This document shows positions 2,469 to 17,711 of a stretch of 17,711 nt of DNA, in pieces. The DNA comes from Patescibacteria group bacterium. GTDB taxonomy: Bacteria; Patescibacteriota; Minisyncoccia; Minisyncoccales; 2-12-FULL-40-12. The notes beneath the pieces were generated by a model. That model was not told the DNA's origin, did no database searches, and saw only the letters and a list, made by a program, of their open reading frames with translations. The stretch is from NCBI GenBank assembly GCA_038062035.1, contig JBBTXV010000018.1:5621-23331 (forward strand), written 5' to 3'. Every line of letters begins with the position of its first letter. The first letter of the stretch is position 1. A program made the position numbers and the translations under genes.

Positions 2469-2828
2469 ATGATAAAGAAATTGTTTATTAAAAAATTAAA
2501 AGAGGGATTAGAAAAAGAAAAAGACCGAGTTGAAGCTTCCCTTCAAGGTTTTGCCAAAAAAGATAGAAAACTTAAAGGAGATTGGGACGTTCCCTTTCCA
2601 AAATTAAGTCATAGTAATTTAGAAGATGAAGCTGAAGAAGTTGAAGAATATGAAGCTTTATTGCCGATTGAATATAGCTTAGAAAACCGGCTTAAAGATA
2701 TAAACTCAGCTTTGGAAAAAATAAAAAAGGGGAGATACGGTAAATGCGAAAATTGCCAAAATCCTATTCAAATTGAACGACTTAAAGCTGCTCCTGAAGC
2801 TCGTTTCTGCCTTAAATGTAAACACTAA
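2469..2828 (+). CDS. TraR/DksA-family C4-type zinc-finger protein
   Basis: The C-terminus reads GRYGKCENCQNPIQIERLKAAPEARFCLKCKH, i.e. CxxC-x17-CxxC preceded by a charged helical N-terminus, which is the zf-dksA/traR architecture. The start is 4 nt after the upstream gene's stop. Confidence 0.75.
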   Translation: MIKKLFIKKLKEGLEKEKDRVEASLQGFAKKDRKLKGDWDVPFPKLSHSNLEDEAEEVEEYEALLPIEYSLENRLKDINSALEKIKKGRYGKCENCQNPIQIERLKAAPEARFCLKCKH

Positions 2829-2840
2829 AAATCTTTTATT

Positions 2841-4406
2841 GTGCCTTCTAAAATATACTCAGCAGCCACTATTGGTCTTGACGCCCAAACTGTTGAAGTT
2901 GAAGTAGATTGCAGTTATGGCCTTCGTTCTTTCACTATTGTGGGATTACCAGATAAGGCCGTTGAAGAGTCAAAAGAAAGAGTAGCCAGCGCAATCAAAA
3001 GCATAAAACTTTCTCCGCCTCACCATCAACCTCGCCGCGTTTTAGTCAATTTGGCGCCAGCTGACCTCAAAAAAGAAGGTTCTCTTTACGATTTGCCAAT
3101 TGCTTTGGGCTTTCTTTTATCTTCAAAACAGATAAAATTTGATCCTGAAGGAAAAATCTTCTTGGGAGAATTAGCTTTAGATGGAAGATTAAGGCCAATT
3201 AAAGGGGCTTTATCTATTTCTCTTTTTGCCCAAAAAAAATTTAAGGAGATAATCTTGCCAGAAGAAAATTCAAAAGAGGCTGCCTTGGCTACTTTAAAGA
3301 ATTCTGGGAAAGAACAAATTGACTTTAAGGTAATTGGCATTGCAAATTTAAAAGAAGCGATTGATTATTTAGAAGGGAAAAAACAAATATCGCCTCAAAA
3401 AATAAATTCCGGGGAACTTTTTAAGGAAACCGACTTTTCTTTTGATTTAGGTTTCATCAAAGGCCAAGAATACGCTAAAAGAGCCCTGGAAATTACAGCA
3501 GCTGGCGGCCACAACCTCTTGATGTCAGGACCGCCTGGCGCTGGAAAAACCCTCCTATCTAAAGCCATTCCTTCTCTTTTACCCTCGCTTTCTTTTGAAG
3601 AATCTTTAGAGGTCACCAAAATTTATAGCATCGCTGGTCTTTTAGCCGAAGGGCAATCCTTGATCAATCTCAGGCCTTTTCGTAATCCTCATCATACTAC
3701 TTCAGAAGTAGCTTTAATTGGCGGAGGAAATCCTCCCAGGCCCGGCGAAATAACTCTGGCTCACCGGGGAATTCTTTTTTTGGACGAGTTTCCTGAATTT
3801 CATCGCGACGTCCTGGAAAGCCTGCGCCAACCCATTGAAGAAGGAAAAATCACCATTGCCAGAGCAAGACACTCTTTAACATTGCCAGCCAGGTTTACTT
3901 TAATCGCTGCCACTAATCCTTGCCCTTGCGGCTATCTTCAAGACTCGGAAAAAAATTGCACCTGTACCAGTTCCCAAGTCCAAATGTATAAAAGAAAATT
4001 ATCTGGCCCTTTAATGGACAGAATTGACCTTACCATTGAAGTTCCAAAATTAAAATACGAAAAATTGATAGCTTCAGGCGAAGAAAGTGAAAGCCAAAAA
4101 ATAAGATTAAGAGTAGAAAAATCAAGGGCAATCCAAGGAAAAAGATTTGGGAATGACAATACTGAAAGAAAAGATAAAATATTAGTGAATGCTGAAATGG
4201 GACTGCCCGAAATAAAAAAATACTGCCAAATAGACAGTAATTCTCAAGGCCTTTTAAAAAAGTACGTTGATTCAGGATTTCTTTCGGCTCGCGGCTACCA
4301 TCGAGTTTTAAAAGTAGCCAGAACTATTGCCGATTTGGATAATTCTGAAAACATCGGCTATCGCCATCTCTCAGAAGCATTAATCTATAGGATAAGAGAA
4401 GGATAA
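2841..4406 (+). CDS. comM: YifB/ComM-family Mg-chelatase-like AAA+ ATPase, GTG start
   Basis: There is an N-terminal Lon/ChlI-like domain (TIVGLPDKAVEESKERV). The Walker A motif is LLMSGPPGAGKTLL and the Walker B region is GILFLDEFPEF. The sensor region ATNPCPCGY with Cys pairs is typical of YifB/ComM. Confidence 0.9.
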   Translation: MPSKIYSAATIGLDAQTVEVEVDCSYGLRSFTIVGLPDKAVEESKERVASAIKSIKLSPPHHQPRRVLVNLAPADLKKEGSLYDLPIALGFLLSSKQIKFDPEGKIFLGELALDGRLRPIKGALSISLFAQKKFKEIILPEENSKEAALATLKNSGKEQIDFKVIGIANLKEAIDYLEGKKQISPQKINSGELFKETDFSFDLGFIKGQEYAKRALEITAAGGHNLLMSGPPGAGKTLLSKAIPSLLPSLSFEESLEVTKIYSIAGLLAEGQSLINLRPFRNPHHTTSEVALIGGGNPPRPGEITLAHRGILFLDEFPEFHRDVLESLRQPIEEGKITIARARHSLTLPARFTLIAATNPCPCGYLQDSEKNCTCTSSQVQMYKRKLSGPLMDRIDLTIEVPKLKYEKLIASGEESESQKIRLRVEKSRAIQGKRFGNDNTERKDKILVNAEMGLPEIKKYCQIDSNSQGLLKKYVDSGFLSARGYHRVLKVARTIADLDNSENIGYRHLSEALIYRIREG

Positions 4407-4407
4407 A

Positions 4408-5553
4408 TTATCTATTAAAAGGATTACTAGCTCCCTTGACTTCAAAATGAAGGTGGCAACCAGTCGTTTTTCCGGTATTTCCTATTGTTCCAATTTGCTC
4501 ACCTGCTGAAACTATTTGTCCTGACTGAACCAAAACGGATCCAAGATGATAATAAGCAGTAACCACTTGGTTAGGATGAATAACAGAAATGCTGTTGCCC
4601 GCTCCAGCATTCCAACCGCCAGCCTTAGCCCTTACGATTTCTCCCCCGGCTGCAGCAAAAACAGGCCTGCCGCAACTATTTCCTCCAGGATGAGTCAAAT
4701 CTACGGCATTATACCAATGCAAACCCTGGCTGATTGTATAAGGAGAAGCCAAAGGAAGAATAAAGTAACTGGAGGGAAGAGATATTTGGTTTGGCGAGGA
4801 AGGATTTACGAACTTTTGCTGCTTTTTTGAAGGCGGGGGCATTATGCCATCGGGAATAATTAAAATATCGCCAATATAAATATCGCCCTCGCTTTCCAAT
4901 TCGTTAAAAGCGACGATCTTGCCAATATCGCTTTTATAATTTTTAGCAATCTGGCTTAAAGTTTCTCCTTTTTTAACGTAGTGTAAAATTCCAGAAACCG
5001 GCAAAATAATTAAAGCTTGGCCAGATTTCAGTTTGGATTTTTTGGTCAGGTTATTAGCCCAAATTAAGGTTTCCAAAGAAATACCAAATTTTTCAGCCAC
5101 TGAGACCAAGGTATCGTCCTCTCTGAGGGTATACTCGATAACCTCTTTTCTCAGACTTGATTCAATCCCTTGTCCTGTCAAAACACCAAAGCTATGAGAC
5201 AAAACCATAACTGGGGAAGAAACAGCCATTATGCTGTCTTTTTGAACCAAAACAAGATCTGAAGAATTGTCAAAAGAATTAGGGCCTAAAACAGAAAGAG
5301 ATGAAGTCAAAACAGGCTGATTGATTCCGTCAAAAGAAGAATCTCCTGGCGCATTTGAAATTTGGGCCTGGAGATTTTTGGTTAAAAGAGAAGAATCTAA
5401 GTTTTCTGAAAAAACAATGGGCCTAAAAGCTAAAGCCAATAACGAAATCGCTAAAATTAACCCAAAAAGGAGAAAAGGGTCTTTGAGAGATCCCTTTTTT
5501 TGTTCGTAGATTCGGCGAATTACCTTTTTGAACTTGGCTCCAAAGGAGCTCAA
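4408..5553 (-). CDS. Membrane-anchored peptidoglycan hydrolase with two LysM domains and a C-terminal M23 (LytM-type) metallopeptidase; TTG start
   Basis: There is an N-terminal TM helix (FLLFGLILAISLLALAF). The two LysM-like segments are YTLREDDTLVSVAEKFGISLETLIWAN and HYVKKGETLSQIAKNYKSDIGKIVAFN. The M23 motifs are HWYNAVD...HPGG and GCHLHFEV. The start codon is TTG (plus-strand CAA at 5551-5553) and the first in-frame ATG lies >100 codons downstream. Confidence 0.85.
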   Translation of the reverse strand: MSSFGAKFKKVIRRIYEQKKGSLKDPFLLFGLILAISLLALAFRPIVFSENLDSSLLTKNLQAQISNAPGDSSFDGINQPVLTSSLSVLGPNSFDNSSDLVLVQKDSIMAVSSPVMVLSHSFGVLTGQGIESSLRKEVIEYTLREDDTLVSVAEKFGISLETLIWANNLTKKSKLKSGQALIILPVSGILHYVKKGETLSQIAKNYKSDIGKIVAFNELESEGDIYIGDILIIPDGIMPPPSKKQQKFVNPSSPNQISLPSSYFILPLASPYTISQGLHWYNAVDLTHPGGNSCGRPVFAAAGGEIVRAKAGGWNAGAGNSISVIHPNQVVTAYYHLGSVLVQSGQIVSAGEQIGTIGNTGKTTGCHLHFEVKGASNPFNR

Positions 5554-5791: not shown

Positions 5792-6628
5792 ATGGAACTT
5801 GCTTCGTTAAGAGAAATAAAAAAGATACTCCAAAAAAACCGAACTTCTCCCTCAAAGGGCTTGGGTCAGAATTTTCTAATCAGTCGAACAGCTCTAAGTC
5901 AGTTAATTGGGGCTGCCGAGCTAAAAAGAGAAGATACCGTCCTGGAAATTGGGCCGGGAATCGGAGTTTTAACCTTAGAATTAGCCAAAAGAGTAAAAAA
6001 ATTAATTGCCGTAGAAAAAGACCGAAAAATGTGCCAAATTCTAAAAGAAACTTTGGAAGCTTATAAAAATTTGGAAATTATCAACGCTGATATTTTAAAA
6101 TTTAACCATAATAACTATAAACTAATAACTAAAAACTATAAACTGGTAGCAAATCTTCCTTATTACATTACATCACCTGTAATAAGAAAGTTCTTGGAAG
6201 TTGAAAAACCGCCTGATTTAATGGTTTTAATCGTGCAAAAAGAAGTCGCTCAAAGAATTTGCGCCAAGCCGCCCAAGCTCAATCTTCTGGCGGTCTCCGT
6301 TCAATTGTATGCCAATCCTAAGATTATCTCTTTTGTTCCGAAAAATTCTTTCTGGCCCAAACCCAAGGTTGATGGAGCAATCATTCAAATTACGCAAATA
6401 AAAAAAGATGGAAAAATAGATAATCAAACATTTTTTAAAATCGTGAAAGCAGGATTTTCCCAGCCAAGAAAACAAATTATTAACAACTTGTCTAAAAGGT
6501 TAAAATTAAATAAGATGCAAGCCGAATCTTGGTTAAAATCTTGTAAAATCGAACCTGAACAAAGGGCTGAAACATTAAGCTTATCTGATTGGATTCTGTT
6601 AACAGAAAAATTTGCTATAATAAAATAA
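5792..6628 (+). CDS. rsmA: 16S rRNA (adenine1518/1519-N6)-dimethyltransferase RsmA/KsgA
   Basis: The N-terminal GQNFL motif is present. The SAM-binding motif is LEIGPGIGVLT, the NLPYYITSPVI motif is present, and the C-terminus is helical. The stop TAA at 6626-6628 overlaps the next ATG. Confidence 0.9.
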   Translation: MELASLREIKKILQKNRTSPSKGLGQNFLISRTALSQLIGAAELKREDTVLEIGPGIGVLTLELAKRVKKLIAVEKDRKMCQILKETLEAYKNLEIINADILKFNHNNYKLITKNYKLVANLPYYITSPVIRKFLEVEKPPDLMVLIVQKEVAQRICAKPPKLNLLAVSVQLYANPKIISFVPKNSFWPKPKVDGAIIQITQIKKDGKIDNQTFFKIVKAGFSQPRKQIINNLSKRLKLNKMQAESWLKSCKIEPEQRAETLSLSDWILLTEKFAIIK

Positions 6629-9123
6629 TGCCAAAGAGAGCAATAGGATTTTTTATAATTTTCTCTACGTTTTTTTTATTATTTTCTCTTTTTTCCTCTT
6701 TTGATTTCGCTTTTGCTCAAGGAAGACAATTGGAAATTGATTATCCAAATGTTCCCGGAGCCCCTACTCCAAAAACAACCGCAACCTTATTACCCGATTA
6801 CGTTAAATACGTCTTTAATTTCGGGATAATAATTTTTGGCTTAATAGTTTTGGGCGTTTTAGTCGCAGGGGGAATTAAATATCTTTTATCCACGGGGAAA
6901 CCGGAAGCATTACAAGAAGCCAAGAATCAAATACTTGCCGCTTTTTTGGGAATAATCGTTTTACTTAGCTCTTATTTAATTCTCACCACTATTAATCCCC
7001 AGTTGGTAATTTTTAACATACCGGGACTAACTCAAATTACGGTCTTTCGCTGCACAACCGATGAAAGTTGTAATGGGCGTTTCGGGTGTGAAACGCCGGG
7101 CACTTGTCGTTGCGACCTTGGAATCTGTAGGGCAAAACTGGAACCAAGGGAAACAACTTTAATAGCTTACGAAATCCCCGTAGGGCAACTGATAGAAAAG
7201 GGTGTTCAGAACGAAAACAATATTAACGAGGTAACCATTTTACTTAACGAATTTGAAAAATTTTTGAAAAAGGAAATTCCCGTTGACCCGCCTTCTTATA
7301 GATTATCTGATTTAAGCAAGCATCTTGTGGGCCTAACCGAAGATTGTAGCTGTGATGCCACGGAGGGTATTTGCGCCACTCCTGAAGCCGGAGCCGGAGG
7401 AGTGGGCTGCTTTGGAAATCCTTGTAAAGATTCCGAGGAAGAAATCCAAAAAGCCGTGGATATTACCTCTCAAAAAATAAGAGAGCTTCAAGATTTTAAA
7501 AATGAAGTAAAAAAACAGTTTCAAATTTTTCTGCAAGAAGGAGAAAAATTTTTAAAAGCTAACGAAGAAATAAATGAGTGTATAGAAAATGGGAAACTTT
7601 TAACCTTGGCTGATTATTTAGCTACATCTCAATTTTTTACTGAGCAAGGATGGAAGACGCAACTCAAATCAAACCCATATTTCCCTAGCTCTGGAGGAGA
7701 CGATCTAACATTTTATTGCATAAAAGGAGGAACAATTTTTGACGCGCCGAGAACCAGCTCATTCAATATACCTGAGATTCCGTTAGAGTTAAACCTTGTA
7801 ATTCCAACCGAACCCTTGTTAAGTCCAGAACCATTATCTTGTCCGGCAATTCTCCCGTTAGGCGAAATGCTAGATAATATAACAATTGAATCATACACAG
7901 CCAACGAAGATCTGGAAAGCCTAATCGTTCTTATTGACTTACTCTCTAAAGAACTCCAAAAATTACTTGATTCTGTTTCAAGCTGCAGCAGGAAAGACGC
8001 ATGCAGCATTACTTGCGCAAAGGGACCAAATCCCTGTTTTCCTGAAAGACCCTGCGCTCAACCATGGGGAGTGGGATATCCATGTTTTCGCTGCAACCCT
8101 CTTTCCCTTCCGCCTTGTTTACTCTGTGGACCAGGCATGGGTCTTTCTCCAAATATTCAAGCCAGAGGGGGCGGATCATCTTGTCAGGGCAATCCTGATG
8201 CGCCATACCACGGCTCCCCTTGCCCTCGTGATGATATAGAAAAAACTTTACAAAAGATTAAACTCCTTGATAATGAAATTATTGAACTAATCCAAGAAAC
8301 AAAAAATGGATTTAATGCGAAGCCGTACATAATAGAGACTCCTAAGGAAAATATAAACTTGCTCCAAGGAATTAGAGGGTCAACGGCATTCTGTACCAGC
8401 GATGATATTAATAACCCGGATATTTTTTTGCTTAATTGCCTAGATGCTATAGGAAATGAAGGGCCGGACGGCAACATAATTGGCGACTGCGATCCTCAAA
8501 GCTTTTTTTGCTGTACCGCTGATAAAACAAAAGCGGGTTCAATAAGGCAATCTTTTCCAAGAGAAACACAAGAATTCAACTATTATACTGGCCCTCGTCT
8601 TGAAAACCCTTTTTCTCCTGCTGAAATTAGAAATAATGTTCCTTATTTTAGCCAAAAGGACCCTCTTTGGGCGGGAAGGTCTTATGGGTGCGGAGGGACA
8701 ACAATAAAATCCTCTGGTTGCGGCCCTACTTCTATGGCTATGGTGTTACGACATTACGGCAAAAATGTCGATCCTGTAATCACTGCTGAATGGTCATTAA
8801 GAAACAACTTTCGAGTTTGTAATGCCGGTACTGCCTGGAGTTTTTTCAACAGTATAGCTAAATCTTACGGTTTAAATGGGTGCAAACCTTTAAGCGTGGC
8901 GAATATTGACAATCTAATAGCTAAACTTTCCGATGGACCGATAATCGTTAGCGGCCGAGGAAATCCTCCGTATTCAAAAGGAGGACATTATATTGTTTTA
9001 ACCGGGGCAGATGAAAATTATGTTTATATAAATGATCCGGCACGACCTAAGTTAAAAAGAAAGCTAATTGACGAATTTAGAATAGCTGGGAGAGCAAGAT
9101 TCGCTTGCCAAGTTAAACAATAG
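6628..9123 (+). CDS. Secreted/membrane chimeric protein: Sec signal peptide, a VirB2/TrbC-type pilin-like TM hairpin, a ~520-aa Cys-rich ectodomain and a C-terminal C39-like (papain-fold) cysteine peptidase domain
   Basis: I prefer the start at ATG 6628 (MPKRAIGFFIIFSTFFLLFSLFSSFDFAFA|QG is a textbook signal peptide) over the tracked 6589 start, which overlaps rsmA. A conserved motif LEIDYPNVPGAPTPKTTATLLPDYVKYVF precedes two TM helices separated by STGKPEALQEAKNQ. Multiple Cys clusters follow. The C-terminus contains YFSQKDPLWAG...GCGPTSMAM...GGHYIVLTG. Confidence 0.75.
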   Translation: MPKRAIGFFIIFSTFFLLFSLFSSFDFAFAQGRQLEIDYPNVPGAPTPKTTATLLPDYVKYVFNFGIIIFGLIVLGVLVAGGIKYLLSTGKPEALQEAKNQILAAFLGIIVLLSSYLILTTINPQLVIFNIPGLTQITVFRCTTDESCNGRFGCETPGTCRCDLGICRAKLEPRETTLIAYEIPVGQLIEKGVQNENNINEVTILLNEFEKFLKKEIPVDPPSYRLSDLSKHLVGLTEDCSCDATEGICATPEAGAGGVGCFGNPCKDSEEEIQKAVDITSQKIRELQDFKNEVKKQFQIFLQEGEKFLKANEEINECIENGKLLTLADYLATSQFFTEQGWKTQLKSNPYFPSSGGDDLTFYCIKGGTIFDAPRTSSFNIPEIPLELNLVIPTEPLLSPEPLSCPAILPLGEMLDNITIESYTANEDLESLIVLIDLLSKELQKLLDSVSSCSRKDACSITCAKGPNPCFPERPCAQPWGVGYPCFRCNPLSLPPCLLCGPGMGLSPNIQARGGGSSCQGNPDAPYHGSPCPRDDIEKTLQKIKLLDNEIIELIQETKNGFNAKPYIIETPKENINLLQGIRGSTAFCTSDDINNPDIFLLNCLDAIGNEGPDGNIIGDCDPQSFFCCTADKTKAGSIRQSFPRETQEFNYYTGPRLENPFSPAEIRNNVPYFSQKDPLWAGRSYGCGGTTIKSSGCGPTSMAMVLRHYGKNVDPVITAEWSLRNNFRVCNAGTAWSFFNSIAKSYGLNGCKPLSVANIDNLIAKLSDGPIIVSGRGNPPYSKGGHYIVLTGADENYVYINDPARPKLKRKLIDEFRIAGRARFACQVKQ
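6731..7013 (+). other. VirB2/TrbC-like pilin hairpin module (conserved pre-helix motif plus two TM helices ending in TINPQL) within the 6628-9123 CDS
   Basis: The topology is signal peptide, short conserved motif, TM1, ~14-aa polar loop, TM2. It is paralogous to 12410-12700. Confidence 0.45.
8630..9075 (+). other. C39-like / papain-fold cysteine peptidase domain (Peptidase_C39_2-like) at the C-terminus of the 6628-9123 CDS
   Basis: The motifs are NVPYFSQKDPLWAGRSYGCGGTTIKSSGCGPTSMAMVLRHYG and later GGHYIVLTGADENYVYINDP. This is a putative Cys nucleophile followed by a His, in the order and spacing expected of YvpB-type C39-like domains. Confidence 0.55.
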
Positions 9124-9144: not shown

Positions 9145-12100
9145 ATGTTAAGAGATCTAAAAAAAAGTTTAATATTAAAATATCTAAAAAAAATTAAGTT
9201 TCTAAATACTTATTTTTTAGCTTTGGGAATAATAACAACGATTTTCTTAATTTCTGGTTTCGCTGGAATAAGCCCTCTTTCTGACAAAGTTAAAGTGTTG
9301 GGCCAAGGAATACCTTTGTTTTATTTCCCCAATTTTCCAATAAGATTGGCTTTTTTAGCTAATGAGATCACGACAACCAACGAAGAACTGATTATTCGTA
9401 GTGATGAGCTATCAAAATTCGTCAACGCTTTCGACTGCAAATACGCTCAATCGCAATGCGTGCAGACAACAAAGAAATTGCCAGGAGGAGGACAGCAATC
9501 CATTTGCGAGCCAGGACCAATAAAAGTATTTGGAAGGGTTAATCCTATACCACAAGGCACCACCAATGAAAAAGAAGTTCACTCCGAAGAAATACAATCT
9601 GCAATAAATGATTTAAATATTAAACTTGCCTCCTTGCAAACAACTTTAAGAGGGGAAGTCGAAATTGGCATAGAAAAACAGTTGAAAACTTTAAGGCCTG
9701 AAGACGCTCAAATTATCAGAGACAATTTAGAAAAACTTGATCGGTTAATGTCCGAAATGAGAAATCTAACTGAAAGAAACTCTTCACTACCTAATAAATG
9801 TTCAGTTCAAAGATGCACCCCGGAATGCGAATTAGGCCAAACTTTTACTGCTGAAGCCTGTGTTGGAGCTTCCGGCGAACAAAAACCAATAGAGCTTAAA
9901 TTTAAAGTCGGCGTAGGATTAGATAATTTGAATCTCGGCAGGTTGGGCATAGAAAACATCAATCTTGGCTTACCAGACAAGGTTAATATACCAACTCCCC
10001 AACTTCCCTCTCTCAGTTTCCGTATTCCAAATGCCACCTTAAACTGCCCGACCCAAAGACAACAGATCGTTTTTCATCCATCCACTCCTATCCTACCAGA
10101 CTTGCCAACCATAACTCTGAGTTGTCCTCAATATCAAAGCTATTCATCCTATCAATGCTCTTCTCCTCCCTCGCAAGGAGAAGAAGGGTTTATTGAATTT
10201 GAATGGTGGAATAAAACTTTTGAGCATTTGTCAGGAGAATGTCTTAAAGTTGCTAACAGCGACAGTAAAAGATTAAAAAATGAACAAGGGCAAATTGAAT
10301 ATCAAAAAGCAGTAGAGGGCTGCATGAGCCCAGAGAAGGTTGTCCCGACCACTATTAATGAGTGTGAAGCAAAATGGGTAAGAAAATGTTCTTTCCTTGA
10401 CTGTCGCTGGGAACTCTCCAATCCCCGAGAACAAGAAATCTGTGGTCAGATTGGTCGTTCACCAGACAAAACTCAAAAAGCGGTTAAATGGTGCCAGACA
10501 TTATACCAAGATGAAGGACAAACCCCTCCGGCTACCTGCTCTTCTGAAACAATTCTAACAACTCATCAAAAGTGCAACGAGATAAGAAATTCAGGTAGAG
10601 AAAACGTTCCGCTTTCTTGTAAACTTTTACCGTTATTCGCTGGACAATTAGAAGATCTGCCAGAAGGAACAGTTATAGGTCAAGGAGGAAATTGTCCATC
10701 TCAAAATATTGGGGATTTTCCTATACCAATGGCTGGTTGCGCAATAACCGCTCCATCTATCCCTAAAATAACTTTTCCAACAATAATTATCCCTGACATC
10801 CATCTTCCAACTTTCAGCTTACCTCCTCTCTTTCGGGTAAAATTACCAAATCTTATTTTTGAGGACTTAAATATAGGCGAAATCAACCTTTGCAACTTAG
10901 ACGACTGCAGCGCCCAATTTCCTTACTTAACTTTTAAACCTCCTTCTTTAAAAATCCCTCAAGTAAATGTTCCGCCTGTTACCCTGGAGATTCCAGGCGC
11001 CTCTCCAATAGATATCCAAATAGAACCAATTAATTTCCAGACCTTAAATTTTAACATTCCCCAGTTAATTAACTTGGGATCTTTGGTAACGCCCGAATTA
11101 AAGATACCGGAAATTCCCCTGCCCCAGCCAAGAATTCAATTCTCTTTTCTCGGAATTAATATTGATTTGCTAAATCTACTTCTTGGCCTTTTCAAAACGC
11201 CCCTCAATCTTAATCAGTGCGTGGCTTTGGACGCTAAGCTTGGAGTGCTCGATATTGTTTATCCTGACAAATATTTCCCTTGGCCAGCCTATCCCAAACC
11301 AGGAGAACTCAAATTTTGCAAAAAAGCAAGAGAATGGTGTCAAAGACAAAAAGGATCAATCCAGGAAATAACAACAAAAGCCGCTAGAATTCAAGAGCAA
11401 GTTAATAGCGTTTTTCAGAGCGAAATCCAAACAAAGCTTGATAAGACAGCTGATAGATTAAATCAAAAAATAACCAGAGAAGTTGAAAGAGAACTTGAGA
11501 AAGTTAAAAACGAAATAAGCAAGCAATTGCTCCAACATTTAGGGAAATATGCTCCTCAAAATGTTATACCTCCTTCAGCGCCGGTGCCTGGCGTCTGGGA
11601 AGTTAAAGGAGAACTTCCCTGTCAAGGAATACCGCCTTTAACCGTTTATATGCCTCCGGATTTACAAACAATTAGCATTGATCCTCAATCAATAAATGAA
11701 TTCCTTGAAAAAGAATTTGGAGAAACCTGGCCAACAGAAATTACTATCCGCTGGCCAAAAGATCTAAAAAAGTTCAAGCTGTCCTGTAACGAAAGTAATT
11801 GTGAGGCCTGTGAACAAAGAGGAAATGACGCTTGCCGAGGATTGTTAAGATGGGCGGACTGCCCGACCCTTGCCAATTGGGAAGATTACGCAAAATGCAA
11901 GTTGGATTACAGAATAAACAGCTGTAAAAACGAGTGCAAAAACTGCTTAAGCTATGACCTGCCGTCAGTTCCTTTGTGCGGATTAAGTTACAAAAAAGAA
12001 TTTACTAGAAGACTTCCTGGCCATCAACTATCTGTAACGACGCCAAGAGATCTTCTTTCGGGTTTAAGAAATGTTCGCGAGTGTATTAGTGGGCCACCCA

Positions 12101-12219
12101 AAGGAGGAAATCCTTGCCAGACAGAAGCAGGTCAAATCCAGGCTAATCTTAATAAGATTAAAAGATTATCGGAGGAGATGAAAAACGCTTCCCAAGAGAT
12201 AACTAATTTATTATACTAA
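9145..12219 (+). CDS. Large (1024 aa) signal-anchored, cysteine- and proline-rich extracytoplasmic protein with a coiled-coil segment; a putative surface or adhesin-like component
   Basis: There is an N-terminal TM anchor (FLALGIITTIFLISGFAGI) and >40 Cys. A coiled-coil stretch (EIQSAINDLNIKLASLQTTLRGEVEIGIEKQLKTL) is present. A long run of periodic xIPxxxLPxL motifs (IPKITFPTIIIPDIHLPTFSLPPLF...KIPEIPLPQPRIQF) shares the IPEIPL motif with the preceding CDS. Spacing to its neighbours is tight. Confidence 0.75.
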   Translation: MLRDLKKSLILKYLKKIKFLNTYFLALGIITTIFLISGFAGISPLSDKVKVLGQGIPLFYFPNFPIRLAFLANEITTTNEELIIRSDELSKFVNAFDCKYAQSQCVQTTKKLPGGGQQSICEPGPIKVFGRVNPIPQGTTNEKEVHSEEIQSAINDLNIKLASLQTTLRGEVEIGIEKQLKTLRPEDAQIIRDNLEKLDRLMSEMRNLTERNSSLPNKCSVQRCTPECELGQTFTAEACVGASGEQKPIELKFKVGVGLDNLNLGRLGIENINLGLPDKVNIPTPQLPSLSFRIPNATLNCPTQRQQIVFHPSTPILPDLPTITLSCPQYQSYSSYQCSSPPSQGEEGFIEFEWWNKTFEHLSGECLKVANSDSKRLKNEQGQIEYQKAVEGCMSPEKVVPTTINECEAKWVRKCSFLDCRWELSNPREQEICGQIGRSPDKTQKAVKWCQTLYQDEGQTPPATCSSETILTTHQKCNEIRNSGRENVPLSCKLLPLFAGQLEDLPEGTVIGQGGNCPSQNIGDFPIPMAGCAITAPSIPKITFPTIIIPDIHLPTFSLPPLFRVKLPNLIFEDLNIGEINLCNLDDCSAQFPYLTFKPPSLKIPQVNVPPVTLEIPGASPIDIQIEPINFQTLNFNIPQLINLGSLVTPELKIPEIPLPQPRIQFSFLGINIDLLNLLLGLFKTPLNLNQCVALDAKLGVLDIVYPDKYFPWPAYPKPGELKFCKKAREWCQRQKGSIQEITTKAARIQEQVNSVFQSEIQTKLDKTADRLNQKITREVERELEKVKNEISKQLLQHLGKYAPQNVIPPSAPVPGVWEVKGELPCQGIPPLTVYMPPDLQTISIDPQSINEFLEKEFGETWPTEITIRWPKDLKKFKLSCNESNCEACEQRGNDACRGLLRWADCPTLANWEDYAKCKLDYRINSCKNECKNCLSYDLPSVPLCGLSYKKEFTRRLPGHQLSVTTPRDLLSGLRNVRECISGPPKGGNPCQTEAGQIQANLNKIKRLSEEMKNASQEITNLLY

Positions 12220-12226
12220 GGTAATT

Positions 12227-13693
12227 ATGAAAGGTACGAGGTTTTTATTCGTTTTATTAATTATTGCTTTCTTGTTTTTTTTATCGGGTAATTTTGTCTC
12301 AGCTCAACAAGTATGCGATAAAGATCAAGATTGTCCAGGAGGTCAAAGCTGTATATCTGATCCTTGCAATACCGACCCTAACGCCCCAAAAATATGCGGT
12401 AAAGGCAGGGCTTTGGAAATCTGCTATCCTCAAATACCAGGAGTCGCTACACCAAAAACAACCGGTGAGCCCTTACCAGATTACATAAATTATATTTTCC
12501 GCTTCGCAATTGCTGCGATAGGCTTTGTTGTCCTTGGAGCTATGGTTTATGCCGGCGTCAGCTATTTTCTTTCATTCAACAACGCAGCGAAACTTCAAGA
12601 TGCCAAAGAAGGAATTTCTGCCGCTTTTTTGGGTGGCGTTATTTTGTTGGCGGCTTTTCTAATTTTTAATACGATAAATCCGCAATTAACTATTCTTGGA
12701 CCTCCAAAAGCTGATCTTCTGTGGGGGACAACTCAACCCGGAATATATATTTGTACTTATCCCGTAGATACAGGTTATTTAACTCAAATTAACCAAGACC
12801 TCAAAATCCAACCAACCTTCGGAGATCTAGGAGCAATTATTGATGCTTATACCAATGAAACGGATCCAAAAAGACAGGTTGAAGCAACTCAGGCATTACA
12901 AAGAATAATGTACAAGGACTCTTCGAATCTTTGCCAATTGCTCTTGAGCTCCACAAATCTCAGAACCCCGTTGCTGCCAAATTATACAATGTTCTCTATC
13001 CCAAAAGTATTCCCTGACCCGAATGATCCGCAAAAGCGCGTAGCAGAATTTCTTGAAGCGGTAATTTTGCATGAAAAAGATGATTTTAAGGGGGAACAAA
13101 AATTATACCCAATACCAAAAACGGTTGGAAGAAAACTTGTGCTCTTTGATCAAATCGACGGATTTAAAGCGGGCAACGGCTTAAATGACATCGGGGGAAG
13201 GGCTAAATCAATTACTCGTATAAAAAAGGCGGATGTGCCAGAAGCAAGCCCTCCAGGGATAACCTTATTCTCCTGCCCCAACTGGAATCAAAGCAAGGGC
13301 TTATGCCCAAAAGGATTGACTGGAACGCCTATCCCCCTTATTGATGCAAGTTTTGCCACTGACGGCGCTGACATTAAACTCTGGGGGAAAAGCGAACTTA
13401 AATCGGGCCAAGAATCTTTAGCTGAAAATGTCCGCTCTATTAGAATCACGCCATTGGGCAGTTTTCTTGCTATAGTATATGAAAAAGACGATGCAAAAGG
13501 AAATGGGGGAATTTTATATTCTGACGCTGCTGATATTAGGGGAAATAAATTGGGGCTTAAAATGTGTGGAACAAACTGTCCTTCGGGAATACTTCAATCC
13601 ACCCCTTTCTTCTTTATTCTTGACAGGATAAGAGGTATTGATTGTACCCCCTGTATAAATTCAATGACAGTTATTAAGGGAATAAAATTATGA
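12227..13693 (+). CDS. Secreted/membrane protein: signal peptide, a Cys-rich N-terminal knot, a VirB2/TrbC-like pilin hairpin (a paralog of the module in 6628-9123) and a ~330-aa ectodomain
   Basis: The signal peptide is MKGTRFLFVLLIIAFLFFLSGNFVSA|QQ, followed by CDKDQDCPGGQSCISDPC. The segment LEICYPQIPGVATPKTTGEPLPDYINYIF...AAFLGGVILLAAFLIFNTINPQL aligns with the 6731-7013 module. The stop overlaps the next start (ATGA at 13690-13693). Confidence 0.8.
   Translation: MKGTRFLFVLLIIAFLFFLSGNFVSAQQVCDKDQDCPGGQSCISDPCNTDPNAPKICGKGRALEICYPQIPGVATPKTTGEPLPDYINYIFRFAIAAIGFVVLGAMVYAGVSYFLSFNNAAKLQDAKEGISAAFLGGVILLAAFLIFNTINPQLTILGPPKADLLWGTTQPGIYICTYPVDTGYLTQINQDLKIQPTFGDLGAIIDAYTNETDPKRQVEATQALQRIMYKDSSNLCQLLLSSTNLRTPLLPNYTMFSIPKVFPDPNDPQKRVAEFLEAVILHEKDDFKGEQKLYPIPKTVGRKLVLFDQIDGFKAGNGLNDIGGRAKSITRIKKADVPEASPPGITLFSCPNWNQSKGLCPKGLTGTPIPLIDASFATDGADIKLWGKSELKSGQESLAENVRSIRITPLGSFLAIVYEKDDAKGNGGILYSDAADIRGNKLGLKMCGTNCPSGILQSTPFFFILDRIRGIDCTPCINSMTVIKGIKL
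12410..12700 (+). other. Second copy of the pilin-like hairpin module
   Basis: The shared pattern with the first copy is LEIxYPxxPGxxTPKTTxxxLPDYxxYxFxF - TM1 - loop - AAFLGxxxLLxxxLIxxTINPQL. Confidence 0.45.
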
Positions 13694-15144
13694 TTCAATT
13701 CTTGGGAGATGCCATTTTAGGTGCCATCTTTCTTGTGCCGGCGATTTTAACCGCTCTACTTATAAGTCTTAGCCAGGCTGCAGCTTTTTTAATGGGGATT
13801 ATCTTAGATTGGATTATTAGCCCTAACTTTACCTCTTATAGCTACACCAAACCCTGCAATCCCCCTGACAGAATAGTCGGAGATTGTAATCCAGTTGTCG
13901 GAATAGGATTAAATATCACTCAAGGCTTTGTAAACTTACTCTTAGTAGTAGTTCTGGTTTATGTTGCTATTTCCATAGCTTTAAGATTAGGAGGGGAAAC
14001 TAATGCGAAAAAGATATTCGTCAATCTAATCATCGTTGCTTTATTGGTGAATTTTGCTCCGGTTCTCATTGGCTTGATCGTGGATGCTACTAATATTGTG
14101 ATGAACTTTTTCTTTTCTTCTATCCAAGGGGGAGCAGCTGGAATATTAAATCAGGGCGCAACAATTTTTGATACGGTAAAAGGCGCTGTACTAGCCTCGG
14201 GAGCAGGATTCAAAGATAGACTGGGATTATTAGCAGCTGGAGCTTTCACAGTAAGCCTCAACCTCTTTATTGCTTTTATCTTTTTGATTTTTGCCGGGCT
14301 CTTCGTTTTCAGATATATTGCCATCTGGATCTTAGTAATCTTATCCCCAATCGCCCTTGTCCTTTGGGTCTTACCCGGCAAGCCAAGACAGTTCTGGAAT
14401 ATGTGGTGGAATAATCTTATCCAATGGTCAATTATTGGAATCCCAATTTCTTTCTTTCTATATTTAGCGCTTGCAAGTTTCAGCGCCATTAATAGATCTT
14501 TCCTAGGACGAATAGAACAATCTTCGGGTATTTTTCCGGCCGCTGATTTAACCTTCGTTGACCGACTCATTCCCTATGCTGTAGTAAGTGCTTTTCTTGG
14601 TATGGGATTTTTAGTGAGCTTGGCAACCTCAGCCATGGGCGCTAACGCCATTATTGCCGGAGGTATGGCAAGCGGTAAATTTACACGCGATAGAGCTTGG
14701 GGGGGAACAAAAAGGGCTAGTAGGGCCACATGGCGAGGAACTAGAAACGCAGGAAGCCAAGTTATGGGTCGTTATGCGGCGGGAAGACAAGCCGGCCAAG
14801 GAAGAATCGGAGCTTTTGGTCGAGCAGTAGGGGGAGCAACTGGAGCAGGAGTACGCCAAGTAGGAAGCACAGTAGCAGGCTGGGCAAGCGTCAGAAGCCA
14901 ATATAGAACAGCGAGACAAGCTGGCGTTGGAAAAATACGGTCAGTATTTATGACAGCACCAGCCAGATCAGCTGCTGGTGCTGCTAAGGGTGTAACTTCT
15001 TTCCTTGGCGGTATGGCAGGCGCATGGGTACAAGGAGCTACCAAGAAGAAGGGTAAAGCGAAAGGAAAAGCATTCTGTAGTACTTGTGGAGCTACTGCTC
15101 CATCGGGATCGAATTTCTGTCAAAGTTGTGGATCGCCAATTTAA
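13690..15144 (+). CDS. Polytopic VirB6/TrbL-like membrane protein with a Gly/Ala/Arg-rich low-complexity tail and a C-terminal zinc ribbon
   Basis: There are ~8 hydrophobic helices across aa 1-330, including YIAIWILVILSPIALVLWVLPG. One extracytoplasmic loop contains a Cys pair (KPCNPPDRIVGDCNP). The tail (aa ~330-455) is rich in G/A/R/T with repeated RxAG and GAxG. The final 22 aa read CSTCGATAPSGSNFCQSCG (CxxC-x10-CxxC). The GC-rich DNA at 14640-15060 matches the tail. Confidence 0.75.
   Translation: MIQFLGDAILGAIFLVPAILTALLISLSQAAAFLMGIILDWIISPNFTSYSYTKPCNPPDRIVGDCNPVVGIGLNITQGFVNLLLVVVLVYVAISIALRLGGETNAKKIFVNLIIVALLVNFAPVLIGLIVDATNIVMNFFFSSIQGGAAGILNQGATIFDTVKGAVLASGAGFKDRLGLLAAGAFTVSLNLFIAFIFLIFAGLFVFRYIAIWILVILSPIALVLWVLPGKPRQFWNMWWNNLIQWSIIGIPISFFLYLALASFSAINRSFLGRIEQSSGIFPAADLTFVDRLIPYAVVSAFLGMGFLVSLATSAMGANAIIAGGMASGKFTRDRAWGGTKRASRATWRGTRNAGSQVMGRYAAGRQAGQGRIGAFGRAVGGATGAGVRQVGSTVAGWASVRSQYRTARQAGVGKIRSVFMTAPARSAAGAAKGVTSFLGGMAGAWVQGATKKKGKAKGKAFCSTCGATAPSGSNFCQSCGSPI
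15073..15141 (+). other. C-terminal zinc-ribbon (CxxC-x10-CxxC) of the VirB6-like protein
   Basis: FCSTCGATAPSGSNFCQSCGSPI is a canonical short zinc-ribbon spacing. Confidence 0.6.
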
Positions 15145-15170: not shown

Positions 15171-15605
15171 ATGATGGAAGATTTTAAATCTGAGGTTGAA
15201 AAAATAAAAGAGCAGTACCCGGAATTTTTTGAAAAGGTTGATCCCGAACTCTTGAAGTTTATTACCTCTGAAAAATTTTTATTTGATGTCGCTCAAATCT
15301 GTTTGGATAATGGAATAACAGACGAGGAGCAAACGGAAAAAATTACTTATAGGGTCGCCTTGGCTTTATTCGGAGAGGTGCCCAAAGAAAATTTAGCCCA
15401 GATTCTTGAACTCGGAGCCGGATTGGATCCTCAAACTGCTAAGGCAATGCATCTTGAGTTCAACCGACTTATTTTTTCTCAACTGAAAGAACCGAAAAAA
15501 AGACCGGAGGTTAAAATGGAATTTTCTCCGGGCTTATTAGAAGAGACCGAAATAGAAAGCGAAAAACCTAAAAGAAAAGATATCTATCACGAGCAGATAC
15601 AATAA
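15171..15605 (+). CDS. Small acidic hypothetical protein (144 aa), probably cytoplasmic
   Basis: It is an intact ORF with a clean start and stop, no TM helix and no motif I recognise. A hairpin terminator follows it. Confidence 0.55.
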   Translation: MMEDFKSEVEKIKEQYPEFFEKVDPELLKFITSEKFLFDVAQICLDNGITDEEQTEKITYRVALALFGEVPKENLAQILELGAGLDPQTAKAMHLEFNRLIFSQLKEPKKRPEVKMEFSPGLLEETEIESEKPKRKDIYHEQIQ

Positions 15606-15619
15606 ACAAAAATAAAGAA

Positions 15620-15645
15620 GGAACGGTAAAACCGTTCCTTTTTTC
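15620..15645. terminator. Bidirectional rho-independent terminator between convergent genes
   Basis: The hairpin is GGAACGG-TAAAA-CCGTTCC (7-bp perfect stem) followed by TTTTTT on the plus strand. The minus strand reads the same stem followed by TTCTTTATTTTT. Confidence 0.65.
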
Positions 15646-15672
15646 AATGAATTCAATGAATTCAACGAATCA
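15642..15672. repeat. Short tandem repeat, about 3 copies of TTCAATGAA / TTCAACGAA
   Basis: The sequence ttcaatgaattcaatgaattcaacgaatcaacc was read directly. It overlaps the stop and last codons of the minus-strand SPFH gene. Confidence 0.4.
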
Positions 15673-16954
15673 ACCAGTAAATCATTGAACCAACCATGGA
15701 AAATATCGCCAGAAGACCTAAGGCCTTCTTACCCAAACTAACATCCTCTTCCGGGTTCGGTATTATCGCCGGGTATCTTGACTTTACTTTTCTTACTGGC
15801 GGAACTTGATCTTCAAGATGCTCTTGCGAGCTTGCTCCTCCTCCTGAAGACTCGTCTTTCTTCTCCGCCGCCTCGGATGATTTTTGCTCTGGCGTCACTC
15901 CTTCACCAACCGGTGGCATTCCTTTATAAGCAGCAATGATCTTCAAGATACCAGCGAGGACTCCGCCATCGCCTCCTTCAGCTCCCGGAGTTTCGATCCT
16001 CAGATAGGATTTTGACTCCATCGAAAGCTTACTCATTGTGCTATCTATTATAACTTTATGCCTCCGGTAGAACTCTTCGGGGCTTGCTTGAAGCTCCTTC
16101 TTAACTTGCTCTGGGGATTTACCTGCACTAGCCACAGATGCAATAACTGTCCCCATTATTTCTTCGGCCCTACCAGCCGCTATTAACTCTTGCTTTCTTT
16201 TAGCTGAAGCCGCCCTCTGATAATCTTCGGACAGATCAACCTCTTGAATCTCAATGCCCTTATCTGCTAATTTCATCCCCCACTTTTGTAAGGTTTCTTC
16301 AATCACCTTAGCTCCAGTTAAAAGACCCTCTTGGTTTTCTGCCCAAAGAGATGCGCCTTTAAGCTTAAGAAGCGTATCAAGGTCACGACTAGTGACAATT
16401 GAACGCATCTCTGCCTTTATTTTGGCGAGAACATCTTCAATTGGGGTCGGAGGAGCAATAAATAAAAAAGAATACGGATTGTCGATCCTTAACGTGATTA
16501 AAACCAAAACGTCCACTGGGATTCTTTCTGGCGGTGCGGTTTCAACAGCCGTAAGCTTAATCGCGTAAACCGCTGATTTCAAGAGAACGTGCCTCATCCT
16601 TAGTTCCTCATGAAACTCAGGGTTTGTATCACCGCTTTCTCTTAAACGAATATCGGTCCAGCGGTTCTTGTACTGGTGGATCGCATGAAATGGCCAAATG
16701 CCATACAAATACAATCCTCCAACAATACGCAAGCCCGTCCAAACTTCGTCTCTCTCCCTACGATCGGGGTCTTCTTCGTCAGTTAAAATCTTCCAACTAT
16801 GATCCATCCAGTGCTTTTCCCACGAAAAAAGGATCTTTTTGAACTTTCCGAAAGACACTACTGCCTTTGCGGTTCCTTCGTTAACCGTGGTAAAACATCT
16901 AATAAACCAGAAAAAAAACGCTAACGATATTCCGAGCGTTATCAGCCATTCCAT
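15662..16954 (-). CDS. SPFH / band-7 (stomatin-prohibitin-flotillin-HflK/C) domain membrane protein with both N- and C-terminal TM segments
   Basis: The N-terminal TM is followed by VNEGTAKAVVSFGKF, which is the typical SPFH domain entry. A long helical Ala/Glu/Lys-rich segment follows (YQRAASAKRKQELIAAGRAEE). The C-terminal hydrophobic segment is GLLAIFSMVGSMIYWLI. The RBS is GAGGTG, 7 nt before the ATG. Confidence 0.75.
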   Translation of the reverse strand: MEWLITLGISLAFFFWFIRCFTTVNEGTAKAVVSFGKFKKILFSWEKHWMDHSWKILTDEEDPDRRERDEVWTGLRIVGGLYLYGIWPFHAIHQYKNRWTDIRLRESGDTNPEFHEELRMRHVLLKSAVYAIKLTAVETAPPERIPVDVLVLITLRIDNPYSFLFIAPPTPIEDVLAKIKAEMRSIVTSRDLDTLLKLKGASLWAENQEGLLTGAKVIEETLQKWGMKLADKGIEIQEVDLSEDYQRAASAKRKQELIAAGRAEEIMGTVIASVASAGKSPEQVKKELQASPEEFYRRHKVIIDSTMSKLSMESKSYLRIETPGAEGGDGGVLAGILKIIAAYKGMPPVGEGVTPEQKSSEAAEKKDESSGGGASSQEHLEDQVPPVRKVKSRYPAIIPNPEEDVSLGKKALGLLAIFSMVGSMIYWLIR

Positions 16955-16957
16955 TTC

Positions 16958-17031
16958 TTTTCACCTCTTCTGTAGATTTTCAGTTCTCAAGGAACTATTA
17001 AAAATATATCATCTATTGAAATCTTTGTCAA
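16958..17031 (-). promoter_or_regulatory. Promoter/leader cassette copy 1 for the SPFH gene, read on the minus strand: -35 TTGACA, 17-bp spacer, extended -10 TGaTATATT, a short leader with a 5-bp hairpin, SD GAGGTG
   Basis: The minus-strand sequence is TTGACAaagatttcaatagaTGaTATATTtttaatAGTTCcttgaGAACTgaaaatctacagaaGAGGTGaaaagaaATG. Copy 2 at 17371-17444 is identical. Confidence 0.6.
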
Positions 17032-17107
17032 GCTTAGAAAATAAAGAGCGCGCTCGAAACGAAACGCGCTATTAACTTTCCAATTTGTATCACCTCTTAT
17101 TTTAAAA

Positions 17108-17368
17108 CTAATCTCTCTGGACCACACAAATGTCGTAATCAATTTTTCTCTCCTTACCATCTATCACAGTTTGAATCAATTCGGTCGAAGGATTTGCATC
17201 GCGCAATAAAATCTTCTCCGTTTTGCATCTTAGACAAATAAGGCGAATAAATAGACTGTCTTCAGTGATCTTTATTCTTCCCCCTATGCATTCTCGATGA
17301 AACATCTCTAAATCTTTAAAGCTAAATTCTTCATCTTTACTCTTTTTCCTCACTTCGATCGTGAACAT
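17108..17368 (-). CDS. Small hypothetical protein (~86 aa from the ATG at 17366-17368; the track's 89-aa version starts at a GTG inside the SD) with 5 Cys including a CLRC pair
   Basis: GAGGTG lies 6 nt upstream of the ATG (MFTIEV...), so the GTG at 17375-17377 is more likely part of the RBS. There is no TM helix. It is driven by the duplicated promoter cassette. Confidence 0.5.
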   Translation of the reverse strand: MFTIEVRKKSKDEEFSFKDLEMFHRECIGGRIKITEDSLFIRLICLRCKTEKILLRDANPSTELIQTVIDGKERKIDYDICVVQRD

Positions 17369-17370
17369 CT

Positions 17371-17444
17371 TTTTCACCTCTTCTGTAGATTTTCAGTTCT
17401 CAAGGAACTATTAAAAATATATCATCTATTGAAATCTTTGTCAA
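17371..17444 (-). promoter_or_regulatory. Promoter/leader cassette copy 2, identical to 16958-17031, driving the small Cys-containing protein
   Basis: There is a 74/74 identity with copy 1 at an offset of 413 bp. The -35/-10/hairpin/SD layout is the same. Confidence 0.6.
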
Positions 17445-17469
17445 ATTTCTGTGGATCTTTGAATTTTAT

Positions 17470-17497
17470 TTGTTGCTTCTTCCTGTTATGTTATAAT
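17470..17497 (+). promoter_or_regulatory. Putative plus-strand promoter for the PrgI-like gene: TTGTTG -35, 16-bp spacer, extended -10 TGtTATAAT
   Basis: ttgttgcttcttcctgttaTGtTATAAT lies ~24 nt before the ATG at 17522. Confidence 0.4.
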
Positions 17498-17521
17498 AAG
17501 TGGAAGAAAAATAACTCCGGT

Positions 17522-17711
17522 ATGAATTTTCAGATTCCCCAATTTATTGAACAAGAAGCAAAAATTTTAGGGCCTTTTACTTTCAAACAAACTCTTTGGG
17601 TAGTCGGGGTCGGGATAATTATATTTTTTCTTTATTATTCTTTAGCCAAAACAAACCCTGTTCTTTTTATCATTATAACGGTATTTTTGGCTGGGACTGG
17701 CTCAGCTTTTG
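17522..17711 (+). CDS. PrgI-family (VirB3-like) small membrane protein, 3'-partial; it runs off the window
   Basis: MNFQIPQFIEQEAKILGPFTFKQTLWVVGVGIIIFFLYYSLAKTNPVLFIIITVFLAGTG matches the conserved PrgI N-terminus (a short amphipathic start, GPFTFKQ, then two TM helices). In monoderm conjugation systems PrgI precedes the VirB4-like ATPase. Confidence 0.55.
   Translation, partial: MNFQIPQFIEQEAKILGPFTFKQTLWVVGVGIIIFFLYYSLAKTNPVLFIIITVFLAGTGSAF

Follow-up and report, generated by a model that had tools for sequence, protein, structure and literature searches.

A PrgI-family gene heading a probable prgI–trsD–virB4 operon in an origin-proximal type IV secretion locus of Patescibacteria

Genes of the locus

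The window (the whole 17,711-nt stretch of DNA analysed here) opens with a plus-strand gene for a 786-aa protein (105–2465) without a Pfam match. Its very long Glu/Lys-rich, coiled-coil-like N-terminal part, which includes internal repeats (e.g. ...PEEKKELETQRWA.EEKR...EKERWEKEE..., present twice), gives way to a proline run, then to a TM segment and finally to a globular C-terminal part; over window positions 1–1500 the skews of both AT and GC are strongly positive. Housekeeping neighbours occupy 2469–5553, comprising a DksA/TraR-type zinc-finger protein, a ComM/YifB-like Mg-chelatase-family ATPase and an M23 peptidase with two LysM domains (minus strand), the last being of the kind counted as VirB1-like in Paceibacteria (PMC12102498). 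The gene ksgA (5792–6628) then adjoins the first transcription unit of a type IV secretion system (T4SS).

This first unit runs on the plus strand, beginning with a gene at 6628–9123 for an 831-aa fusion protein (taken as 844 aa in the Pfam comparison of its pilin segment), for which Pfam comparison distinguishes a T4SS_pilin-like N-terminus (PF18895, 24.3 bits, below the cut-off of 26.6), a Cys-rich middle and a C39-like peptidase C-terminus (PF13529, 79.9 bits); a pilin–peptidase fusion of this type is unusual. Next come a 1024-aa Cys-rich protein with no assigned function (9145–12219), homologues of which are present in the closest syntenic loci (L006, L009 and L081), and a 488-aa secreted Cys-rich protein with an N-terminal VirB2-like T4SS_pilin segment (12227–13693; PF18895, E = 0.0022, 18.5 bits, below the 26.6 cut-off), whose L009 homologue likewise carries a weak PF18895 match. 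A VirB6/TrbL-like polytopic membrane protein with a C-terminal zinc ribbon (13690–15144) was recognised by sequence comparison and Pfam, with 54% identity over 324 aa to a 603-aa protein of L009 carrying PF19590 (TrbL_3); its gene ends 2.38 kb upstream of prgI, in keeping with the 2.4 kb given in the preliminary description. The last gene of the unit encodes a 144-aa acidic conserved protein, p144 (15171–15605, plus strand), which matches no Pfam or NCBIfam model; it lies directly before prgI on the same (plus) strand in 31 of 80 GTDB loci and is likely an unrecognised conserved T4SS component.

The T4SS gene row is then interrupted by a minus-strand gene for a 430-aa SPFH/Band-7 membrane protein (15662–16954; PF01145, 28.1 bits against a cut-off of 23.6). 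An SPFH gene stands at the same position in L006 and L009, and homologues were found, within the sequence retrieved for each locus, in only eight of the 80 GTDB species loci (L013, L017, L018, L019, L047, L052, L063 and L069), which points to a lineage-specific recruitment of SPFH into the T4SS row; the homologue is sometimes placed on the other side of p144. An 86-aa orphan ORF, p86 (17108–17368, minus strand), separates the SPFH gene from prgI; it is equipped with its own terminator (17047–17070) and matched by the same-strain loci L001 and L003 only. The two minus-strand genes had been taken for an SPFH pair in the preliminary description, a reading that does not hold: a BLASTP comparison of p86 with the SPFH protein gave E = 3.1, p86 has no Pfam or NCBIfam family match, and its candidacy as an SPFH paralogue was rejected, so that the locus has one SPFH gene and an unrelated orphan. 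A perfect 74-nt direct repeat (16958–17031 and 17371–17444, 413 nt apart) provides both SPFH and p86 with the same upstream promoter (TTGACA-17-TATATT with TG) and ribosome-binding region; the repeat and p86 together look like a recent insertion or duplication.

At the very edge of the window, the 5′ part of a prgI/virB3-like ORF (17522–17711, plus strand) begins at an ATG at 17522 and is cut by the window end after 63 of its 138 codons. The sequence was extended from other assemblies of the same aquifer well (Hainich H51) rather than from the window's own record. The source MAG's NCBI contig, L001 (GCA_964361475.1), stops at window position 17669, and the extension was therefore taken from ENA contigs: L003, from the 0.1-µm fraction of well H51, is 100% identical to the window over a 3154-nt overlap and adds 285 nt, while L091, from a replicate sample of the same well, shares 55 nt with the window and 340 nt with L003, both overlaps being free of mismatches. 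In these extended coordinates prgI ends at 17938, and the 58 nt that L003 holds past its stop start a new ORF, MANLATQQFLEIDQIREG. When the equivalent 214-aa protein from a relative with 78% identity was used as the query, one protein with exactly the MANLATQQFLEIDQIREG N-terminus was retrieved (P0101, on L091), placing a TrsD-like gene of 214 aa at 17944–18588 (plus strand, 5-nt gap after prgI) and a VirB4 ATPase gene of 597 aa at 18585–20378 (plus strand, 4-nt overlap with the TrsD-like gene); on L091 itself, the trsD-like and virB4 pair sits at 288–2722. After virB4, L091 encodes a 125-aa TM membrane protein, followed by jag, yidC and rnpA, all three on the opposite strand, and then dnaA; the distance from the window to dnaA and the probable replication origin is thus about 5 kb.

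The earlier expectation that a T4SS-like system continues downstream of the window was thereby borne out in the identical contigs L003 and L091, with one amendment: the predicted VirB4-like ATPase is present, carrying Walker A (GTSGSGKS) and Walker B (ILVVDEAW) motifs, yet as the second gene after prgI, the TrsD-like gene coming first. The 597-aa protein scores 377.9 bits against NF045971 (CD1110-family, monoderm; cut-off 325), aligning to model positions 178–733 of 752, and also carries PF19044, PF12846 and PF01935. The 214-aa protein aligns to positions 2–119 of the same 752-position VirB4 model, has a precomputed PF26593 (TraC-like) assignment and at least 6808 homologues, and matches the TrsD model NF041427 weakly (20 bits against a cut-off of 200). 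Since positions 2–119 and 178–733 of NF045971 are covered by separate proteins, VirB4 is, as judged from these alignments, encoded in two pieces here, a TrsD-like N-domain and an ATPase (the TrsD/TrsE arrangement).

This arrangement was compared across relatives by scanning a single genome for each GTDB species; at least 578 PrgI relatives were found, and the best 80 loci were analysed. The order PrgI, TrsD-like, VirB4 is present in all 69 of those loci that extend at least 2.8 kb downstream, with median gaps of 3 nt (PrgI–TrsD) and 5 nt (TrsD–VirB4) and median lengths of 213 aa for the TrsD-like protein and 599 aa for VirB4; VirB4 ORFs of about 1117–1266 aa occur in a few loci, and their length suggests C-terminal fusions. 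In 34 of 43 loci, DnaA is encoded no more than 10 kb downstream. The groups represented are Patescibacteria, Parcubacteria/Paceibacterota, Nealsonbacteria and related lineages; the window's own genome is absent from this one-genome-per-species scan, which gave no relative above 53% identity, and the nearer relatives (69–80% identity) derive from Logan, ENA and JGI contigs. The closest of them, L006 (78%) and L009 (69%), share the window's whole gene row: pilin–C39 fusion, Cys-rich protein of ~1000 aa, pilin-like protein, VirB6/TrbL_3, a protein of ~150 aa, SPFH (opposite strand) and PrgI.

Identity of the PrgI-family protein

The translated ORF at 17522–17711 reads MNFQIPQFIEQEAKILGPFTFKQTLWVVGVGIIIFFLYYSLAKTNPVLFIIITVFLAGTGSAF. 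Its N-terminus had been quoted exactly in the preliminary description, where it was said to be followed by two hydrophobic helices as the signature of the PrgI family, and both helices are supported by hydropathy, with peaks at residues 24–42 and 47–65, and by an AlphaFold2 model built from 33 homologues, with helices at residues 21–41 and 46–65 (pLDDT above 90). The mean pLDDT of the model is 72, residues 20–90 being well predicted and the C-terminal tail falling below 50. The part of prgI within the window spans the N-terminal motif, TM helix 1 (about 24–41) and most of TM helix 2 (about 47–65). At 138 aa, the full protein falls inside the family class of about 115–160 aa with two TM helices after a short N-terminal cytoplasmic segment.

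In the suggested Pfam search, the 63-aa fragment matches PF12666 (PrgI) with E = 8e-6 and 26.8 bits at profile positions 2–60 of 91, with no other Pfam family below E = 0.1; this score lies 0.2 bits under the curated gathering threshold of 27 bits because the fragment is truncated, whereas the full 138-aa protein reconstructed from L003 passes it (32.8 bits, E = 1e-7). A PF12666 assignment is likewise precomputed for nearly all of 96 PrgI homologues, several of which bear the NCBI name ‘PrgI family protein’ in Patescibacteria, Paceibacterales or Nealsonbacteria MAGs. No NCBIfam model was matched by the PrgI protein; an hmmsearch of PDB sequences with a profile of 33 PrgI sequences gave chance matches only (E at least 0.5), and a Foldseek comparison of the AlphaFold2 model with the PDB gave nothing below E = 5, a bare TM hairpin being a poor query for fold searches.

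Conservation among the 33 aligned homologues is strongest in the hydrophilic N-terminal motif (M-x-F-x-[VI]-PQFIE-x-EAKI-x-GP-[LF]-TFKQ) and at W92, and less so in the helices, the invariant positions being P6, Q7, F8, E10, Q23 and W92; because these fall outside the helices, the PrgI match is not an artefact of hydrophobicity. The C-terminus consists of a 45-residue charged tail, the last part of which is a conserved LKIAEKSQLKKLSTQIET helix motif. From profile and conservation together, the partial ORF at 17522–17711 can be assigned to the PrgI family (VirB3-like).

Transcription units and candidate promoters

A division of the locus into two transcription units, proposed earlier, agrees with the features found between them: a hairpin, the two minus-strand genes and then the prgI promoter region. 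The hairpin, a bidirectional terminator at 15614–15644 between the convergent p144 and SPFH genes, has 14-nt arms with 93% complementarity and T-runs on both sides, overlaps a terminator-like site on the minus strand (15640–15618), and marks the end of T4SS unit 1. Since the genes immediately upstream are on the minus strand and unit 1 is closed by this hairpin, prgI needs a promoter of its own in the 153-nt intergenic region at 17369–17521.

The best candidate for the prgI–trsD–virB4 unit is a perfect extended −10 element, TGTTATAAT, at 17489–17497 (plus strand), 24 nt before the ATG. The presence of an extended −10 at the window edge had already been pointed out; similar motifs in relatives accord with it, and its use as a promoter is predicted. 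Its position would imply a leader of about 17 nt, in which there is no obvious Shine–Dalgarno sequence. A weak −35-like hexamer, TTGTTG (17470–17475, plus strand; 3 of 6 matches), stands 16 nt upstream of TATAAT and is probably dispensable given the TG extension; a generic sigma-70 consensus scan of the window did not report the TGTTATAAT promoter because its −35 matches at only 3 of 6 positions. The pattern TGNTATAAT occurs four times in the window against 0.51 expected, a count reached in 0 of 200 shuffles, the other copies lying at 6613–6621 (plus), 4708–4716 (minus) and 10500–10508 (minus). The copy at 4708–4716 is inside the M23/LysM peptidase gene and that at 10500–10508 is antisense within the 1024-aa gene. 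The copy at 6613–6621, TGCTATAAT, lies in the terminal part of ksgA and stops 6 nt short of the ATG (6628) of the 831-aa fusion gene, a position that suggests a leaderless or near-leaderless start of T4SS unit 1.

An alternative is that the prgI unit starts elsewhere, for example at a weaker TTCTCA-17-TATCAT (17397–17425, plus strand) or from a promoter served by an alternative sigma factor. The former has 9 of 12 matches in the consensus scan, the TGTTATAAT promoter has a poor −35, and TGNTATAAT is found also at the two apparently non-promoter minus-strand positions. The 17397–17425 match, however, falls inside the 74-nt repeat, the other copy of which matches too (16984–17012, plus strand) with no plus-strand gene downstream; as both repeat copies hold the same plus-strand match, it probably arises incidentally from the minus-strand promoter sequence. 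That promoter, a divergent sigma-70-type element for p86 (TTGACA-17-TATATT with TG; 17416–17444, minus strand; 11 of 12 matches in the consensus scan), lies inside the repeat copy at 17371–17444, in the 153-nt intergenic region that also contains the candidate prgI promoter, and its minus-strand TTGACA is conserved in relatives that have a divergent upstream gene. Comparison with relatives further disfavours a start elsewhere: among those whose prgI-upstream region is non-coding or divergent, TGnTAnAAT is found 17–38 nt before the PrgI ATG in seven (L006, L009, L013, L017, L019, L063 and L034); in L040 the distance is 65 nt, and the motif is absent in relatives where p144 abuts prgI. A start other than TGTTATAAT is accordingly unlikely, if still worth bearing in mind, and TGTTATAAT at 17489–17497 most likely drives the prgI module.

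Relation to known systems and predicted function

The locus resembles the chromosomal T4SS described for Patescibacteria (Quinonero-Coronel et al. 2025, PMC12102498), in which VirB4 forms a distinct clade of MPF-FATA ancestry, TrsD is the most abundant VirB4 partner, PrgI/VirB3 mostly adjoins virB4, and, in Paceibacteria, VirB4, TrsD, PrgI/VirB3, VirB6 and VirB2-like pilins are encoded near dnaA, dnaN, rnpA and ksgA, relaxases being absent in most cases. The two have in common the PF12666 match, the size class, the TrsD/VirB4 linkage and the lack of a nearby relaxase, as well as the neighbouring VirB6-like and VirB2-like pilin-domain proteins, M23/LysM peptidase, ksgA, rnpA and dnaA, and MPF-FATA ancestry of the VirB4 is indicated here by its NF045971 profile score of 377.9 bits. 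Nothing essential differs, except that here an SPFH gene and a strain-specific 86-aa ORF part prgI from virB6 and p144. The ORF is thus very probably the first gene of a prgI(virB3)–trsD–virB4 operon belonging to the chromosomal, origin-proximal, MPF-FATA-derived T4SS typical of Patescibacteria (Paceibacteria/Nealsonbacteria-like, groundwater).

More distant counterparts are found on conjugative plasmids. The Pfam family matched by the window ORF has as its founding member PrgI of Enterococcus faecalis pCF10, the VirB3 equivalent of that plasmid's system, with 117 aa, two TM helices and a prgH–prgI–prgJ gene order (PMC12857230); like the protein described here, it is a small two-TM protein encoded just upstream of a VirB4-type ATPase. 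On pCF10, prgI directly follows prgH (VirB6) and partly overlaps prgJ (full-length VirB4), on a conjugative plasmid with relaxase and T4CP, whereas here a TrsD-like gene intervenes, the locus is chromosomal and close to dnaA, and the PrgI product carries a charged tail of 45 residues that ends in LKIAEKSQLKKLSTQIET. The same three-gene module of small VirB3-like protein, TrsD and VirB4 ATPase is represented by TrsC–TrsD–TrsE of Staphylococcus aureus pGO1/pSK41, which, according to the account in PMC12102498 of Guglielmini et al. 2014 (PMC4027160), belong to an MPF-FATA subclass with a separate TrsD that is a remote homologue of the VirB4 N-terminus. In contrast to pGO1, the small protein here matches the PrgI profile and not TrsC, and the 214-aa protein is only remotely related to TrsD, its NCBIfam TrsD score of 20 bits being far under the cut-off of 200. 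With VirB3/TrwM, seen in the R388 cryo-EM structure (PMC12624023), the predicted common role is that of a two-TM hairpin joining the VirB4 hexamer to the membrane beside VirB6; no sequence or Foldseek similarity to it was detected, and the envelope here is monoderm, without VirB7, VirB9 and VirB10.

VirB3 is a two-TM inner-membrane protein that binds VirB4 and joins the central VirB4 hexamer to the membrane, and in the R388 structure it stands beside VirB6 at the proposed site of pilin recruitment (PMC12624023, PMC12857230). By analogy, the 138-aa PrgI would enter the cytoplasmic membrane as a two-helix hairpin and tether there the hexamer of the VirB4 ATPase, a contact to which homology and gene linkage point, the TrsD-like N-domain (214 aa) and the ATPase (597 aa) together making up VirB4. 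PrgI would thus most likely anchor TrsD and the VirB4 ATPase next to the VirB6-like channel protein (13690–15144), and its hairpin may help to recruit the VirB2-like pilin-domain proteins encoded upstream, on the model of VirB3 in R388. With the SPFH gene and the orphan ORF on the opposite strand separating the prgI module from the pilin and VirB6 genes, such a module would be expressed from a promoter of its own.

A more specific proposal is that the prgI–trsD–virB4 unit, transcribed from its own promoter with a short leader, and the separately regulated pilin/VirB6 unit build a machine for import or contact, with a pilus of unusually large Cys-rich VirB2-domain fusions (one with a C39-type peptidase), PrgI as the entry gate for pilins and the SPFH protein as a scaffold. 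This reading rests on gene content, and T4SS-mediated import has already been published as a hypothesis; we regard the proposal as speculative and improbable in this full form.

It is very improbable that the locus belongs to a conjugative element (ICE or plasmid), with PrgI serving DNA export to recipients as on pCF10. The VirB4 is nearest to a monoderm conjugation family (NF045971, CD1110 family), and PrgI, TrsD and VirB6 are conjugation-derived parts (PMC12102498), yet neither a relaxase nor a VirD4/TcpA-type coupling protein domain was found in the major ORFs of the 17.7-kb window and the 5.7-kb extension (L091), the window has no composition break, and the position between ksgA and jag–yidC–rnpA–dnaA is housekeeping, origin-proximal and kept across dozens of species; across the published genomes, relaxases were found near virB4 in only 15 (PMC12102498). 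With no relaxase or coupling protein nearby and the locus embedded among housekeeping genes beside dnaA, the function of the system is probably not conjugation, a conclusion also reached in PMC12102498.

The weakest reading, in which the ORF encodes a generic small membrane protein that resembles PrgI through hydrophobic composition and has no T4SS role, could draw on the marginal Pfam score of the 63-aa fragment and on fold matches that are all non-significant, the best-superposing being a membrane hairpin, ATP synthase subunit c (E 8.3), but it retains next to no probability against conservation that peaks in the hydrophilic PQFIE..K....TFKQ motif and W92 rather than in the helices, a full-length protein above the curated PF12666 cut-off, and a trsD–virB4 linkage in 69/69 loci with median gaps of 3–5 nt, this synteny effectively refuting it.

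With the prgI–trsD–virB4 module recognised, the identity of the window-edge ORF is fixed, which matters little beyond correct annotation, and of the two halves of this Patescibacteria T4SS locus the window contains one in full, along with the opening gene of the second. The prgI locus is a routine member of an already known, published and near-universal chromosomal T4SS of Patescibacteria, to which it adds one more example, with a lineage-specific insertion of SPFH and orphan genes. The system itself is of biological importance: PrgI, TrsD and VirB6 are essential for the epibiotic growth of Ca. Southlakia epibionticum (Wang et al. 2023, as cited in PMC12102498), and the T4SS has previously been described as essential for such growth in the one Saccharibacterium tested.
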